A stretch of DNA of 15,393 nucleotides from a virus (IMGVR_UViG_2675903609_000002:1-15393), one strand, 5' to 3'; shown: positions 1 through 12,106, counted from the first letter of the stretch. Notes: generated from the letters alone by a model not told the origin. Numbers and translations are program-made.

Positions 1-93
1 CCGCATAGTGCGCTGGGTTATCGCTCGCCACGGGAATATCTGCGGCAGCGGGCTTGTAATAGGTTAAGTGATAACAGATGTCTGGAAATATAG
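1..93 (+). CDS. insD: IS2 transposase OrfB (InsD), C-terminal 30 codons only; 5' part outside window
   Basis: Frame 1 translates to [30 protein letters not shown], stop TAG at 91-93, which is the InsD C-terminus from memory. Confidence 0.8.
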
Positions 94-104
94 GGGCAAA
101 TCCA
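1..104 (+). mobile_element. IS2, right-end fragment (element continues beyond the window start); terminus at 104
   Basis: Bases 1-104 match the 3' end of IS2 as I remember it, ending in the terminal repeat ...GTGATAACAGATGTCTGGAAATATAGGGGCAAATCCA. The sequence after 104 is unrelated usher coding sequence. Confidence 0.85.
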
Positions 105-1829
105 CCAGCGTTCTAACGGAATACTGAGATTCAAAGAGAGTGCACGGTCATTATTTTCATCAGTGTAGCGGCTGTATTGATAATTCAGGCTGTAACCAAT
201 TCCCCATTGCTGGCCGGAAACCCCAACAGAGATATTACTGTTTTTCTCGTTATTGCCCCAATAGTCTTGCTGTGAACCGGAGGCATACAGACTTACCCCA
301 TCAAATATTGTCTGGCTGATGTTGAATTGAATTTCACTTTTTTGGCGACTGTTATAGCCCCAATTGCGGGTATTGGCTTCATCAAAACTAAAATAGCCAT
401 CGTTGGTATAGCGATAGTAGCTAACAGCGATATTGGTGTTGGTTTCCGGGATATCTTTGATGTACTGAGTACGCCATTGATAGCCATGAAAAGAGTGCTG
501 GTTATCGAATTGGGTGTCAGCTCTGTTGATATCCATCGACAACGCGCCCAGTGCGCCAAGTGTGCCGCCGATACCGATCCCCAGCGCATAATAATCTTCA
601 GAACCGAGCAGGCCGCCATACAGCGTAAAAGTATTATTCAAACCATATATTGCCGTGGCTTCAGCAAATTCGGGTTCCTTGCTATCACTGTTTGCATCAG
701 CGCGATAGCGTCCAGCGGTCGCGCTATATTTTAGATGCCCAGGTCGCTGCATCATGGGTAATGAAGAATAAGGCTGGATAAAGCGACGTTGTGTACCGTC
801 ACTTTCTTCAATCGTGACTTCTAAATCGCCGCTGTTGGAAGAGGGGTAGAGATCGTTAATTTCAAAGGCACCCGCTGGCACGTTGCTTTGATAGATCACA
901 TAACCATTTTGCCTGATAGTCACGATTGCACTACTGTTTGCGATACCGCGTACCGTTGGGGCAAATCCGCGCTGGCTGTTTGGCAACATATTATCGTCGG
1001 AAGCGAGTTGCACGCCAGTAAAGGCGTAGCTGGAAAAAATACTGCCGCTGGTGGCGCTTTCTCCCAGAAGCAACTGAGACTTCAACGCCTTGATATCACG
1101 TTGTAAATAACTACTGATAGTGTTCCAGCTTGACGCCTGATCGTTGCGTGTCCACGTAGAATAGTTACGTAATCGCCAGGGGCCAAAATTAGCACCATTT
1201 TGCATATTCAGGTACTGTCGTTGGCTACGATTGCCCTGGCGGTAACGGTTATCAGAACCTGTAAACGAGTAGTTGGTAAACAGCGTTGGTATACCATCGT
1301 CCCAACGAGAAGGGGAGACGTAACCTCTTGCATCACGGTACAGTGCAATTTGGGGAATGCTCAAATTAAGTCGCTGATGATTGAAATCAAATTCAGCAGC
1401 TGTACCGGGAATGATTTGTTCAAGCGAGTTGATCACGCTATCGTCATCTTTTTCAGCCAGCGCCGGGATTTCATCCACCTTAATACCCAGCTCACGTAGT
1501 TGTTCTACCGTAAACTGTGGCTGCAGAAGTTGCTCTGCATTGGCGGTAAATGTAATTTTTTTCTGTGAAACCTTCTTTTTATTCAGCCAGATATCAACCT
1601 GATAAGTTCCTGGTAGTTGTGCGTATTTTTTTGAAAAACGTGACAGATCGGTTGTTTGCATACCACTTTTTGTAGTTTCCAGCATAATGGGGTCGAAATA
1701 ATACTCTTCGGCGTTAGCGGTAGTGCAAAGCATGCCGCTGCCAGTGAGCACCATCGGCAAACAACGTTTGATAATGAGCGCCAACTGTTTCGGTGTGCGT
1801 TTATGTCCCTGGTGGTGTCGTTGTGGCAT
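105..1829 (-). pseudogene. Fimbrial outer-membrane usher (PapC/FimD family), interrupted by IS2; N-terminal ~575 codons present
   Basis: Minus-strand ORF with signal peptide and usher N-terminal motif (MPQRHH...MVLTGSGMLCTTANAEEYYFDPIMLE...). The frame runs without a stop into the IS2 end at 104, so track ORF 18..1898 is a read-through artefact. Start taken at ATG 1829, 28 nt after the chaperone stop. Confidence 0.8.
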
Positions 1830-1857
1830 TCCCTGATGGCCTGTGTTTTTATATTTT

Positions 1858-2493
1858 TTATTGCAGTGGACGAGTTTCTGTCCCGGAACTGCCGCCATAA
1901 TCGTTGATCGCAGCCCATTTCACGTTCTTTCCGCCAGATGCTGGAAGTGGTAACTGTTTATGTTCTCCGGGCGCGATATATTCAATTTTGCTTGTGAGAT
2001 CGGTTTTATCGACTGCCAGTCCGGCAAATACGACGTAATATTCAGTTGGGTTATATATATTGAGTGAATGGTCACTACGTTTAAATTCCAGTGATTTCCA
2101 CGCATCGTTTACCCGTCCCTTCAGGTGTGCGGGGCGATAAAACATTTTGACCCGCGTTTTAAATACCAGCGTCAACTCGTTAGCATTAACATCATCTGAT
2201 TTTTTCTTTGCTGGAATGGCACGAACATTAATGTAGAACAGCGACTCTTTATTTTCAGGCAGGTTATCAGCTGTTTTAATAATTCGCAGTGATGAGTCAT
2301 CGCCAGCCTCAAGACGAAATAGCGGTGGGGTTATAATAAATGGGGCACGGCTTTTACCATCTATATTATCTACCCATGATTGCAGTAAATAAGGCGTTTC
2401 TGCGCCTTTGTTTGCGACAGGTAACGCAGCCTCTTTGCGGCTGGCATCATAGATCACTCGCGTTCGCTGTAAAACGATACCCCCTGCAGACAT
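1858..2493 (-). pseudogene. Fimbrial periplasmic chaperone (PapD/FimC family), 5'-truncated with no signal peptide
   Basis: Translation has chaperone hallmarks ([14 protein letters not shown]..., ...YLLQSWVDN...[13 protein letters not shown]...). The ORF begins at the mature-protein position, with an in-frame TAG (2494-2496) directly upstream and no signal peptide in any frame. Confidence 0.7.
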
Positions 2494-2562
2494 CTACTTG
2501 AAGCGGCAGGGGATTGATTGGAATGGTGTTTTTTAGATGTGAGAAATATTTTACCCGCTATT

Positions 2563-2763
2563 TTACCCATTGGCGCGGCTTAAGAGCTTATTTTTGAATT
2601 CACAATGGTCACGATATAACCATCTTGCTCGACCGTGGATAACTTTGGCTTTAGGCAGGTCGCCGGACTTAATCCGGTCGTAGATGAAGGTTTTACCAAA
2701 GCCAGTATCAGCCATGATGAATTTCAAATCAACCAGTGAATCAGGTTGTAGTTCGTGTTGCAT
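2563..2763 (-). CDS. AlpA/excisionase-family small DNA-binding protein (Xis-like), 66 aa
   Basis: SD GGAG 9 nt upstream of ATG 2763. Sequence ...DLKFIMADTGFGKTFIYDRIKSGDLPKAKVIHGRARW... resembles phage AlpA/Xis HTH proteins. It is the last gene of the leftward operon, where lambdoid xis sits. Confidence 0.55.
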   Translation of the reverse strand: MQHELQPDSLVDLKFIMADTGFGKTFIYDRIKSGDLPKAKVIHGRARWLYRDHCEFKNKLLSRANG

Positions 2764-2804
2764 GAGTGCTATCTCCGAATAGGGAATCGAACCTGCAAAT
2801 CAGG

Positions 2805-2830
2805 CAATAAAAAACCGCCATCAGGCGGCT
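2805..2830 (-). terminator. Intrinsic terminator candidate after the zinc-ribbon gene
   Basis: Minus-strand RNA AGCCGCC-UGAU-GGCGGUU followed by a U-rich tail (UUUUUUAUU). Confidence 0.45.
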
Positions 2831-2894
2831 TGGTGTTCTTTCAGTTCTTCAATTCGAATATTGGTTACATTGTTTTCATATATGAATAAATAAA

Positions 2895-3074
2895 TTAGCT
2901 TTTTTCGTTGCCTTCGCGTTCTTTATTAATTTTGACAAAATCGTTTTTACCACGCTCTCCAAATGCGTCTTTAGAGTCGTTGTATCCGCAATCGCAGCAC
3001 ACATAATCATCAGACCATCCACGCATTGTTTTTTCTTTTGCAATATTTCCAGAACCGCATTTTGGACAAGACAT
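2895..3074 (-). CDS. Small zinc-ribbon protein, 59 aa (CPKC...CCDC)
   Basis: SD GGAGG 7 nt upstream of ATG 3074. Translation MSCPKCGSGNIAKEKTMRGWSDDYVCCDCGYNDSKDAFGERGKNDFVKINKEREGNEKS has two Cys pairs. Confidence 0.55.
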   Translation of the reverse strand: MSCPKCGSGNIAKEKTMRGWSDDYVCCDCGYNDSKDAFGERGKNDFVKINKEREGNEKS

Positions 3075-3170
3075 ATCACTACCTCCAAAGCATGAGTGAG
3101 ATGACAACGTAACATTGATTGGAGATTAACAATAGATTGCTGATGTAAAAGATATGTATAAGCTTCGCTT

Positions 3171-4056: not shown

Positions 4057-4785
4057 TCACTCTCCTTTGATGCGAAAGCCAGCTGCGCTTGCTGATTCTT
4101 CATATGCGCGTTTAGCAGCGTTAAGGATTGCTGCCAGTGGCGTATAGCCGCCATCCATTCGGATTGTGTTGTGGATGCCAGCCATTGTGTTGCGCAATTT
4201 TCTGTGGCTAGCAGACAGTTCTGCTATGCGCTTCTCTGCGGCTTCCAGCTTCTCGCGCATATCGTCAACGTACTCGACCAGAGAACCGCCAGCAGGAATT
4301 TCGCACTCCTCGACCAGTTGGAAGTAGATATCAGCTGCGGCCCGTGTGTTGCTATGCCTAGCGTCGCCCATCTCACCTTCACGAAGAGCATCGCGTTCGG
4401 CGGTAAGATTGGCTATTTTGCTGTCTTTGCCTTCCAGCTCAACGCGCAGCTTCCCTACCGTTAGCGCAATTTCCTCGTTCTCCTGATCGCGGCGTTTTAT
4501 GTATTGCTGGTTTCTTTCCAGCTCATCCAGCAGTGCCAGCACGGTAGCTGGACTGGCTGCGGCGATGAATTCAGCATTGGCCTGCTGTTCCATTTGGAAA
4601 TCTTCATCGAAACCGCTTTCAGGATGCGCTCCTTCAATTCTGCAAATGGGAATATATCCAGCAGCCTCGCGATGAATTAGGGCATCATCACCATCAAATC
4701 GGCTCTCTCCATATTCGAGCGACCACTCACCACACGTTGCTTTCTCTGCCTTGGCACGCAGTGCCTGATAGTCAATCTTGCTCAC
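4057..4785 (-). CDS. Ea22/Ead-like phage protein with central coiled coil, 242 aa, GTG start
   Basis: Strong SD AAAGGAGG 7 nt upstream of GTG 4785. The upstream part of track ORF 4057..4977 overlaps the Lar-like gene in another frame and is discounted. Confidence 0.55.
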   Translation of the reverse strand: MSKIDYQALRAKAEKATCGEWSLEYGESRFDGDDALIHREAAGYIPICRIEGAHPESGFDEDFQMEQQANAEFIAAASPATVLALLDELERNQQYIKRRDQENEEIALTVGKLRVELEGKDSKIANLTAERDALREGEMGDARHSNTRAAADIYFQLVEECEIPAGGSLVEYVDDMREKLEAAEKRIAELSASHRKLRNTMAGIHNTIRMDGGYTPLAAILNAAKRAYEESASAAGFRIKGE

Positions 4786-9500: not shown

Positions 9501-9528
9501 CAAAAATAAAGGCCACCGTCAGGCAGCC
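9501..9528 (-). terminator. Intrinsic terminator candidate overlapping the ral stop codon
   Basis: Minus-strand RNA GGCUGCC-UGAC-GGUGGCC (two G.U pairs) followed by UUUAUUUUU. Confidence 0.45.
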
Positions 9529-9719
9529 TTGTTGTTCAGTTTACCAAGTTCTCTGGCAATCATTGCCGTCGTTCGTATTGCCCATTTATCGACATATTTC
9601 CCATCTTCCATTACAGGAAACATTTCTTCAGGCTTAACCATGCATTCCGATTGCAGCTTGCATCCATTGCATCGCTTGAATTGTCCACACCATTGATTTT
9701 TATCAATGGTCGTAGTCAT
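9519..9719 (-). CDS. ral: Ral restriction-alleviation protein, 66 aa
   Basis: MTTTIDKNQWCGQFKRCNGCKLQSECMVKPEEMFPVMEDGKYVDKWAIRTTAMIARELGK... matches lambda Ral almost residue-for-residue from memory. Confidence 0.9.
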   Translation of the reverse strand: MTTTIDKNQWCGQFKRCNGCKLQSECMVKPEEMFPVMEDGKYVDKWAIRTTAMIARELGKLNNKAA

Positions 9720-9789
9720 ACGGATAGTCCTGGTATTGTTCCATCACATCCTGAGGATGCTCTTCGAACTCTTCAAATTCTTCTTCCAT
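9703..9789 (-). CDS. Small acidic ORF, 28 aa, between N and ral
   Basis: ATG 9789 with SD GGTG 4 nt upstream. Translation MEEEFEEFEEHPQDVMEQYQDYPYDYDH; overlaps the ral start by 16 nt. Confidence 0.35.
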   Translation of the reverse strand: MEEEFEEFEEHPQDVMEQYQDYPYDYDH

Positions 9790-9797
9790 ATATCACC

Positions 9798-10124
9798 TCA
9801 AATAAGTGGTTTGCTGCCTAATTTCATTTTCTGGCGACCAACACAAGTCACACCCATTTCACTGCGTGGCTTGCTGTACCATGTGCGCTGATTCTTGCGC
9901 TCAATACGCTGCAGGTTGCTTTCAATCTGTTCGTGGTATTCAGCCAGCACCGTAAGGTCTATCGGATTCAGTGCGCTTTCTACTCGTGATTTCGGTTTGC
10001 GATTCAGCGAGAGAATAGGGCGGTTAACTGGTTTTGCGCTTACCCCAACCAACAGGGGATTTGCTGCTTTCCATTGAGCCTGTTTCTCTGCGCGACGTTC
10101 GCGGCGGCGTGTTTGAGAGTCCAT
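9798..10124 (-). CDS. N: Antitermination protein N, 108 aa
   Basis: MDSQTRRRERRAEKQAQWKAANPLLVGVSAKPVNRPILSLNRKPKSRVESALNPIDLTVLAEYH... is near-identical to lambda N (Arg-rich motif intact), differing mainly in the C-terminal ~20 aa. Confidence 0.95.
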   Translation of the reverse strand: MDSQTRRRERRAEKQAQWKAANPLLVGVSAKPVNRPILSLNRKPKSRVESALNPIDLTVLAEYHEQIESNLQRIERKNQRTWYSKPRSEMGVTCVGRQKMKLGSKPLI

Positions 10125-10165
10125 ATATCATCCTCAGATAAATGGCCCCTCAGCGGGGCCGACAG

Positions 10166-10294
10166 TTATTGGCAGGTTGCGTACTTGCTGATGCAGGAGA
10201 AGATTTCCACGATTCGCGTCATTGTTGTTTCAGGACGCTTTGCTTCATCACGCATTGACTTCAACCAAGCCATAAAGTGTTCGTTATGTTTCAT
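10166..10294 (-). CDS. Small ORF, 42 aa, inserted between the N leader and N (not in ORF track)
   Basis: ACAGGAG-ATGAAC-ATG: it uses the SD that precedes N directly in lambda. Translation MKHNEHFMAWLKSMRDEAKRPETTMTRIVEIFSCISKYATCQ. A GGCCCC-GCUGA-GGGGCC hairpin (10144-10160) follows. Confidence 0.35.
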   Translation of the reverse strand: MKHNEHFMAWLKSMRDEAKRPETTMTRIVEIFSCISKYATCQ

Positions 10295-10561
10295 GTTCAT
10301 CTCCTGTCAGTTAGCTTTGGTGGTGTGGTGGCTGGTAGTCTAGCTCCAGCTTGTTGAGTCTCATTCGGAGGGGTATAACCGGCACCCCAGCGATTTTTCC
10401 ATGCGACAACGTGCGCGTTATGGCGGCCTTATCGCCCGCGGCTCCCCATCTCGTCCACGCTATTGCTAGCGTTGGGAGCGCTTCACCGCTCAACAGTAGG
10501 TAAGCACTTGCCAGTGACTAGCTGGCTTCACCACACCCCAAAGCCTTCTGCTTTGAATGCT

Positions 10562-10592
10562 GCCCTTCTTCAGGGCTTAATTTTTAAGAGCC
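10562..10592 (-). promoter_or_regulatory. nutL (boxA-like + boxB hairpin)
   Basis: Minus strand reads GGCTCTTAAAAATTAA-GCCCTGAAGAAGGGC. The boxB hairpin matches lambda nutL as I recall it; boxA has G where lambda has C at its first position. Confidence 0.8.
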
Positions 10593-10636
10593 TCACCTTC
10601 ATGGTGGTCAGTGCGTCCTGCTGATGGCTTAAAATT

Positions 10637-10704
10637 ACAAGAAAGATTGTATGTTGTAAACAAGAAATATTGTAAAAAGGGGCGTGAAAAACAAACTCCA
10701 TTGT
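10637..10704. promoter_or_regulatory. OL operator cluster (OL1 10637-10650, OL2 10660-10673, OL3 10691-10704) with the PL promoter
   Basis: Three 14-bp ACAA-N6-TTGT sites: ACAAGAAAGATTGT, ACAAGAAATATTGT, ACAAACTCCATTGT. Minus-strand -35 candidates TTTACA at 10660-10655 or 10676-10671; hexamers not resolved. Confidence 0.75.

Positions 10705-10753: not shown

Positions 10754-12106
<1,353 letters not shown>

Follow-up and report, generated by a model that had tools for sequence, protein, structure and literature searches.

In phage lambda, the antiterminator gene N is translated from a Shine-Dalgarno (SD) sequence that lies directly ahead of its start codon, and the question raised by the viral sequence IMGVR_UViG_2675903609_000002:1-15393 is what the gene that has come to lie on this SD does in place of N. 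The whole stretch of 15,393 nucleotides (nt), referred to here as the window, carries on its minus strand, to which all early-left features described below belong, the early-left (pL) operon of a lambda-like lambdoid prophage. The operon runs from cI through pL, nutL, a long leader, a small open reading frame (ORF), a GC hairpin, N, a 28-codon acidic ORF and ral to a terminator-like site. When the window is aligned with lambda, Sf6 and Escherichia coli prophages, approximately 165 nt are found to be extra just past the lambda N SD, CTGACAGGAGA, and these contain the 42-codon small ORF, the GC hairpin and a new SD for N. The explanation that we favour, at about even confidence, is that this insert is a small accessory gene encoding an immediate-early anti-restriction peptide that resembles Stp of phage T4, and that it is not primarily a regulatory leader.

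The boundaries of the insert are sharply defined. The window has CCAAAGCTAACTGACAGGAG at 10320-10301, and as far as 10300 the leader is 100% identical to that of Sf6, HK446 and HK633, with homology ending at precisely this position. In lambda (NC_001416), and likewise in Sf6 and E. coli AZ159, the sequence is CTGACAGGAGA-ATCCAG-ATG(N), which confirms the lambda sequence quoted in the original prediction, whereas the window reads CTGACAGGAGA-TGAACATGAAAC, continues through the ORF to TAA-CTGTC-GGCCCCGCTGAGGGGCC-ATTTATCTGAGGATGATAT and reaches N at ATGGACTCT. The right edge of the new segment falls inside N, where codons 2-3 are GAC TCT (Asp-Ser) in the window and GAT GCA in lambda. The SD itself, AGGAG at 10301-10305, belongs to N in lambda and serves the small ORF in the window, with a spacing of 6 nt to the small-ORF ATG at 10294 as against 7 nt to N in lambda. 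The ATG of N is now 177 nt past the old SD, far from the lambda-type placement of 7 nt, and the canonical position is occupied by the ATG of the small ORF.

The small gene (MKHNEHFMAWLKSMRDEAKRPETTMTRIVEIFSCISKYATCQ, 10166-10294) comprises 42 codons and a TAA stop at 10168-10166, and an alternative in-frame ATG at 10300 would extend it to 44 amino acids (aa). The hairpin, GGCCCC-GCUGA-GGGGCC (10144-10160), begins 5 nt past the stop codon and is followed on its 3' side by an interrupted U-rich tail, AUUUAUCU (DNA ATTTATCT, 10136-10143). Next comes the new ribosome-binding site (RBS) of N (10125-10135), which consists of GAGGA at 10135-10131 and the spacer UGAUAU and leads directly to the N ATG at 10124. 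It had been proposed from the sequence that an ORF of 42-44 codons and a hairpin with such a tail were inserted between the N leader and N, that the ORF took over the SD of lambda N, and that N was left with an SD of its own after the hairpin; comparison with lambda and other lambdoid nutL-N intervals bears out each of these points. A further observation concerns the source of the new RBS. The sequence before the N ATG, ATTTATCTGAGGATGATATATGGA (10120-10143), differs by one indel and one mismatch from the junction between the N stop and the next ORF at 9785-9806 (CTTATTTGAGGTGATATATGGA; CTTATTTGAGG-TGATATATGGA), and the linker TGAGGTGA..ATATG lies 3' of N in most related prophages. This near-copy suggests that N took what is now its own RBS from an inter-gene linker common among lambdoid phages, probably via recombination.

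We are highly confident that the small ORF is a real gene and the first cistron of the pL transcript, placed on what in lambda is the SD of N. All relatives of the peptide begin MKHN..., which fits the start at ATG 10294, and the PGAP annotation of NCBI uses the same start for a 42-aa hypothetical protein, WP_000682198.1. The 44-aa start at ATG 10300 was rejected on the grounds of its 1-nt spacing from the SD and the N-termini of the homologues. An exhaustive phmmer search of 1.84 billion representative proteins returned seven small relatives of 40-67% identity, and a profile search returned 40 clusters of 38-57 aa plus a few longer gene calls, bringing the identity range of the relatives to 40-74%. 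These relatives appeared only by exhaustive phmmer, since a word-indexed protein search recovered only the 90% cluster of the peptide itself. Two long phmmer matches, P0012 (584 aa) and P0016 (661 aa), are repetitive proteins that match over short stretches and were judged unrelated.

The substitution pattern is that of a translated sequence. Among loci with identical peptides, compared within subtypes, there are no nonsynonymous and up to five synonymous differences, and across three 42-codon subtypes the variable columns fall 14/7/30 by codon position. In the family alignment E17, A18, R27 and I31 are invariant and N4, H6, W10, L11, L14, E30 and Y38 nearly so. The retention of frame, length and residue pattern, together with the third-position and synonymous bias, argues that this is not a chance ORF, and on this comparative evidence it is a member of a conserved small-protein family under purifying selection. 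AlphaFold2, given the family alignment, predicts a two-helix hairpin (H5-19 and H25-41) with a mean predicted local distance difference test score of 90.8. A Foldseek search of the PDB with this model gave only non-specific helical hairpins (best E = 4.6), and sequence searches of the PDB returned no solved structure of either Stp or the small-ORF family. The window peptide alone gave nothing meaningful against Pfam, PHROGs, NCBIfam and PADLOC (a GCK domain at E = 0.07 and a DNA methyltransferase PHROG at E = 0.06), and no annotation or literature for the family was found.

The indication of function comes from the N-terminus. T4 Stp, a peptide of 26 aa, is an inhibitor of the type IC restriction enzymes EcoprrI and EcoR124I, and it is through this inhibition that the PrrC anticodon nuclease is triggered. 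When 35 family members were scanned against phrog_6763 ('activator of host PrrC lysyl-tRNA endonuclease', T4 Stp) and Pfam PF08133 ('Anticodon nuclease activator', Nuclease_act), 14 of the 35 matched the former at E < 1, with a best E of 1.4e-4, and two matched the latter at E = 1.3e-3. For a direct comparison, the Stp sequence was verified in T4-like genomes and in stp as annotated in T2, and a set was assembled of T4 Stp and eight homologues of 25-28 aa from T-even phages, Drexlerviridae and other siphoviruses. These nine sequences share invariant M1, H5, N6, E7, H8, M10, Q11, R14 and K18. Alignment of the family against them with hhalign gave a probability of 94.7% and E = 5.8e-8, placing family residues 2-12 (KHNEHvMxWLx) on Stp residues 4-14 (FHNEHVMQFYR), and in two members, P0011 and P0021, the string HNEHVMQW is the same as in the Stp of phages TH44 and LPSTLL. 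Of the residues that are invariant in Stp, the window peptide (HNEHFMAWLK) retains both H of the motif, the N, the E and the M; it scores 11.2 bits on an Stp profile built for this analysis, compared with a maximum of 10.6 in 10,500 composition-matched shuffles, and is surpassed among background ORFs by Stp alone.

According to the T4 review PMC3014915, loss-of-function and suppressor mutations cluster at residues 4-14, deletion of the last eight codons has a moderate effect only, so that the C-terminal eight codons are largely dispensable, and Stp inhibits type IC restriction (EcoprrI, EcoR124I) but neither modification nor type IA enzymes. Judged by this correspondence, the shared segment coincides with the functional core of Stp, and homology of the core to Stp appears moderately probable. 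Both are very small, early, phage-encoded peptides with the N-terminal motif at the same distance from the start. They differ in length, as family members have 42-45 aa (42 in the window) and Stp homologues 25-28; in the C-terminus, which is variable and largely dispensable in Stp and forms a conserved second helix in the family; and in carriers, which are virulent T-even or T1-like phages for Stp and temperate phages, integrative and conjugative element (ICE)-like regions and megaplasmids for the family. The window peptide is best described as Stp-like, not Stp, with its length, its second helix and scores below the curated Stp thresholds setting it apart from Stp in the strict sense. A small accessory peptide had been one of the alternatives offered at the outset, and it is the one favoured by the amino-acid-level conservation, the occurrence in contexts without N and the match of the N-terminus to the Stp core.

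Homologues of Stp in several siphoviruses (Kagunavirus, Drexlerviridae, Segzyvirus and Skatevirus; loci L034-L040) are unannotated or labelled 'hypothetical', and in many T4-like records the stp ORF is not annotated and the match lies under ndd. No paper containing the string HNEHVM was found, and literature searches on Stp/PrrC/EcoprrI, anti-restriction and leading-region anti-defence brought to light no earlier account of an Stp-like gene in a lambdoid prophage or a conjugative element.

The distribution of the family shows in how many settings the gene occurs. In a set of 5,426 complete E. coli genomes, the matching type of leader and N 5' end is present in 864 and the insert in just eight, and a scan of GTDB species representatives gave just one E. 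coli locus. The exact peptide is present on approximately 296 contigs, with one locus from Klebsiella aerogenes, in prophages with at least six repressor types, three leader middles and varied downstream genes. At the window-type loci inspected, the stop codon of the ORF lies 41-42 nt upstream of a lambda-type N, and the insert DNA is almost invariant, so that its own variation tests neither coding nor RNA structure. In four different prophages a subtype of 71% identity again takes the first gene position past cI and pL, with the structured leader on one side of it and N on the other, but the N that begins 36-39 nt downstream belongs to another antiterminator family, PF25694 N_peptide; E. coli HL15 has the PF25694-type N without the ORF. 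In a Citrobacter subtype of 74% identity, the ORF precedes the whole structured leader, and the next ORF, 159-240 nt away, is neither Arg-rich nor N-like (in locus L019 it is acidic), with no recognisable N. At these Citrobacter loci (L019-L021, approximately 4130-4330) the ORF is followed by a hairpin, GGCGCTC-N8-GAGCGCC, and then by a leader with lambda-like arms, TTTTGGGGTG ... CCACACCACCAAAAC. A 45-aa subfamily resides in Pseudomonas ICE-like arrays without N, among neighbours that include UvrD, MvaT, DotM_C, ParA, RadC and UmuDC, and on two Pseudomonas megaplasmids. Other members lie in further phage-like early regions, and overall the family is one of early regions of temperate enterobacterial phages and of these Pseudomonas contexts. 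The association with two N families, the position upstream of the leader in Citrobacter and the N-less Pseudomonas contexts indicate that the peptide has an existence independent of N, which argues against a pure N leader peptide.

On the favoured explanation, the peptide would bind and inhibit a type I restriction enzyme as Stp does EcoprrI and EcoR124I. An anti-restriction function of this kind is a proposal that we rate a little short of even. As transcription from pL reaches the ORF before N and before any terminator, the peptide would be made in the first moments of infection or induction, without antitermination, and because the first good terminator-like site lies past ral it would be made together with N and Ral. 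Lambda Ral (PF11058) is likewise a small early protein of the pL operon that counters type I restriction, and in the window it is encoded in the same pre-terminator transcript; it has no sequence similarity to the small-ORF peptide. Ral is directed at type IA enzymes and works through enhanced modification, so that Ral against type IA and a Stp-like peptide against type IC might complement rather than duplicate each other. N would be translated from its own SD, and the hairpin would be at most a leaky terminator or a structural element of the mRNA.

The position on the former SD of N may also have consequences for the timing of expression. In lambda, as summarised in PMC5725501 with reference to Wilson et al. 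1997 and 2002, N and Nus factors at NutL repress translation at the N RBS, an effect modulated by the structured leader. The lambda interval and that of the window are alike in the pL start, boxA and boxB, the closing arms of the leader and the SD CTGACAGGAG, and unlike in that this SD drives N in lambda and the small ORF in the window, where N lies approximately 170 nt farther downstream on a different SD. By analogy, control acting at the lambda N RBS would now fall on the small ORF, and the N/Nus-NutL translational repression and RNase III control of lambda N would together limit the peptide to a short early burst.

Several findings weigh against this explanation. The similarity to Stp spans just 11 residues, within which the window peptide has F for V/I9, A for Q11 and K for R14, positions that are invariant among the nine Stp homologues, and on its own it is not significant against phrog_6763 or PF08133, with no match to either at E ≤ 10. 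The family is 1.6 times as long as Stp and has a conserved second helix (E17, A18, R27, E30, I31), and its function may differ. No family member was found in 50,697 phage genomes, searched with the insert and with two peptides, so a role in a viable phage is unproven; blastn with the insert, at a sensitivity of 65-70%, gave no match, and tblastn gave only a spurious hit at E = 6 for the window peptide and none for the 71%-identical relative. In two of the eight complete E. coli genomes with the insert, N is cut by ISEc12, and the short and constant distance from N, seen with both N families, could instead reflect an N-linked function. In these two genomes (L003, Ecol_545, and L009, C1) the IS21-family element lies in N after codon 8 and the Stp-like ORF and hairpin are intact; in L009 the rest of N is present past the element.

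The best surviving alternative is that the ORF is mainly a cis-acting upstream ORF which, with the hairpin, sets the level of N, whether through translational coupling or attenuation at the hairpin, as the original prediction had also suggested, or through an RNA switch in which the N start is hidden. The structure of the interval offers some encouragement. The distance from the ORF stop to N is fixed within each type, and the hairpin, with a 6-bp all-GC stem, a 5-nt loop and -14.7 kcal/mol when folded alone, is flagged as terminator-like, although the scan found three sites in all, not more than expected from shuffles (2.1 +/- 1.8). Folding of the region favours an alternative at -29.5 kcal/mol over the best hairpin-keeping fold at -24.9, with an equilibrium probability of the hairpin of 0.04 or less. 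The alternative fold pairs the 3' arm of the hairpin and CCAU with AUGGACUCUC, which contains the N AUG and codons 2-4. The minimum free energy structure therefore buries the N AUG (unpaired probability ≤0.16), leaves the N SD in a loop and draws on the module-specific codons GAC UCU for its pairing. In the PF25694-N subtype, CCUC next to the ORF stop is predicted to pair with the N SD GGAG (unpaired probability 0.01-0.06), a classical coupling arrangement.

Against this, the local fold is no more stable than that of shuffled sequences (z = -1.07), the hairpin sequence is not conserved between subtypes, the U-rich tail occurs in the window type only, and the near-invariance of the insert means that covariation of the predicted pairings cannot be assessed. 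The tail has at most three consecutive U, preceded by A, which would make the hairpin at best a weak intrinsic terminator. A strong terminator at this site was rejected, because it would be self-defeating with conserved N downstream, the U-tract is interrupted and the hairpins of other subtypes lack U-tracts. A leader peptide or attenuator would also not account for a peptide conserved at the amino-acid level that occurs outside N contexts: purifying selection across 40-74% identity and a confidently predicted fold are unusual for a pure leader peptide, and some relatives have no N nearby or are separated from the next ORF by the whole structured leader. A mainly cis-acting role is unlikely on this balance. 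It can nonetheless coexist with an accessory gene as a secondary effect, and the predicted pairings are compatible with some coupling of the two cistrons, making regulation of N a possible by-product of the insertion.

The peptide might instead act in trans as a partner of N, for example by protecting it from Lon or by modulating the antitermination complex, with the likeness to Stp being coincidental or convergent. Enterobacterial prophages do almost always place the gene immediately upstream of an N-type antiterminator, and they do so with two unrelated N families and many immunity regions. A role that depends on N is made less likely by the Pseudomonas members and the Citrobacter type, there is no sequence hint of RNA, Nus or Lon binding, and two independent libraries as well as the profile-profile comparison all point to Stp, so that such a role seems distinctly improbable. 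Finally, recombination might have left a scar without function, with the ORF no more than an annotation artefact. This might be entertained given that the near-invariant window-type insert carries no internal evidence of selection, is rare among the complete E. coli genomes and is absent from the sequenced phages searched, but it is effectively refuted by diverged homologues that keep reading frame, length and residue pattern, by substitutions that are third-position biased or synonymous only and by the spread of the exact peptide through prophages of at least six repressor types.

Returning to the Stp-like accessory gene, its mobility invites comparison with the lambdoid 'morons', which Juhala et al. 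2000 reportedly described as extra genes between genes that are adjacent in related phages. Like them, it is a self-contained additional gene, here trailed by a hairpin; it occurs in approximately 1% of otherwise collinear nutL-N intervals, and it moves among prophages of different immunity regions and leader middles. A moron would also bring a promoter and a terminator of its own, and in the window the hairpin is only weakly terminator-like. Unlike the morons, the gene has no predicted promoter of its own, a scan of 10300-10560 having found no promoter-like site, but uses the operon promoter and the RBS of its neighbour, and it would be expressed with the early lytic operon and not from the repressed prophage. 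A more ambitious proposal, which is possible but which we put forward as doubtful in its entirety, is that lambdoid prophages, Pseudomonas ICE-like regions and megaplasmids harbour an unrecognised Stp-like anti-restriction family beyond the virulent phages, and that in lambdoid phages this family has repeatedly been placed ahead of N as the very first protein. In the window type it would have captured the nutL/RNase III-controlled RBS of N, so that N autoregulation would gate a burst of counter-defence, and N would have been re-wired to a new RBS whose start codon can be hidden by an alternative fold of the hairpin.

The region upstream of the insert is otherwise that of a lambdoid phage. The pL promoter and operator region (10625-10700), identified by direct reading, is of 434/Sf6 type, and its equivalent in Sf6 is annotated PL/OL 'similar to phage 434'. 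By homology, the candidate start of the pL transcript is A 10625 (ATCAGCAGG...), and the 5' end of the transcript is conserved with lambda in the alignment. nutL (10562-10592) aligns with the annotated Nutl of lambda and consists of boxA, GGCTCTTAA (10592-10584), and boxB, GCCCTGAAGAAGGGC (10576-10562). boxB is identical to that of lambda, whereas the first base of boxA (10592) is G in the window and C in lambda (CGCTCTTAA); this G is common to the four non-lambda sequences aligned, namely the window and the insert-bearing prophages JCKP02, Ecol_545 and VTB97584v.

Between nutL and the SD lies the structured N leader (10313-10545), in which closing arms GGCTTTGGGGTGTGGTG on the 5' side and CACCACACCACCAAAGC on the 3' side surround a variable middle. 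Folding of 10560-10280 closes with the conserved arms at -105.7 kcal/mol (z = -4.2), and none of 200 shuffles was as stable. Across the aligned prophages (five loci, including lambda) the leader is a mosaic, with the arms GGCTTTGGGGTGTG (5') and CCACACCACCAAAGC (3') conserved and the 110-200 nt between them (10346-10528 in the window) present in at least four unrelated versions. This pattern fits a closing helix that is conserved and an apical part that can be exchanged freely. The leader would correspond to the RNase III-sensitive domain of lambda, its sensitivity to RNase III being carried over from the lambda case (PMC5725501, references 28 and 29 therein). Rfam, run on the whole window, returned no family at the gathering score, and no described RNA element covers the leader or the hairpin.

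Downstream of the insert, N (9798-10124) encodes a lambda-type antiterminator of 108 aa (Pfam PF11438 N36, E = 5e-26). Directly 3' of it and overlapping the start of ral is the 28-codon ORF MEEEFEEFEEHPQDVMEQYQDYPYDYDH (9703-9789), which is extremely acidic, matches phrog_16060 (unknown function, E = 2.5e-18) and belongs to the same pre-terminator transcript as N, Ral and the Stp-like gene. The anti-restriction gene ral (9519-9719; Pfam PF11058 Ral, E = 2e-48) ends at the first convincing terminator-like site of the operon (9509-9530), a 9-bp stem followed by TATTTTTGG. On the other side of the promoter, cI (11155-11787) is of 434/Sf6 type, and between cI and pL, in the position of rexAB, lies an ORF (10754-11230, minus strand) whose likely start gives a signal-peptide or lipoprotein-like N-terminus; it has no Pfam match but does match phrog_2651 (unknown function, E = 2e-57), and in related prophages the slot is filled by other genes (NYN, SDH_protease and others). 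The left end of the early-left region adjoins a fimbrial usher (PapC/Usher, 18-2493, minus strand) and a PapD chaperone (2500-3170), and no integrase was recognised between these fimbrial genes and the early-left region, which suggests that the prophage end is truncated or that the attachment site is unusual.

Stp has so far been treated as a T-even curiosity, and a 2025 EcoSal review, in its remarks on the protein, has it acting 'by an unknown mechanism'. If the relationship proposed here is true, a longer and well-folded relative, found in two bacterial orders on temperate phages, ICE-like regions and megaplasmids, would be a tractable means of learning how type I restriction is disabled by a motif of 11 residues. 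It would also help to explain how defence systems such as PrrC sense the inhibition of restriction. Should the likeness to Stp be superficial, this would still be a conserved, unannotated small early protein. In either case the finding shows that the textbook order of pL, nutL and N can change: a gene ahead of N can inherit the translational control region of N, and such a gene is a natural experiment on N autoregulation.

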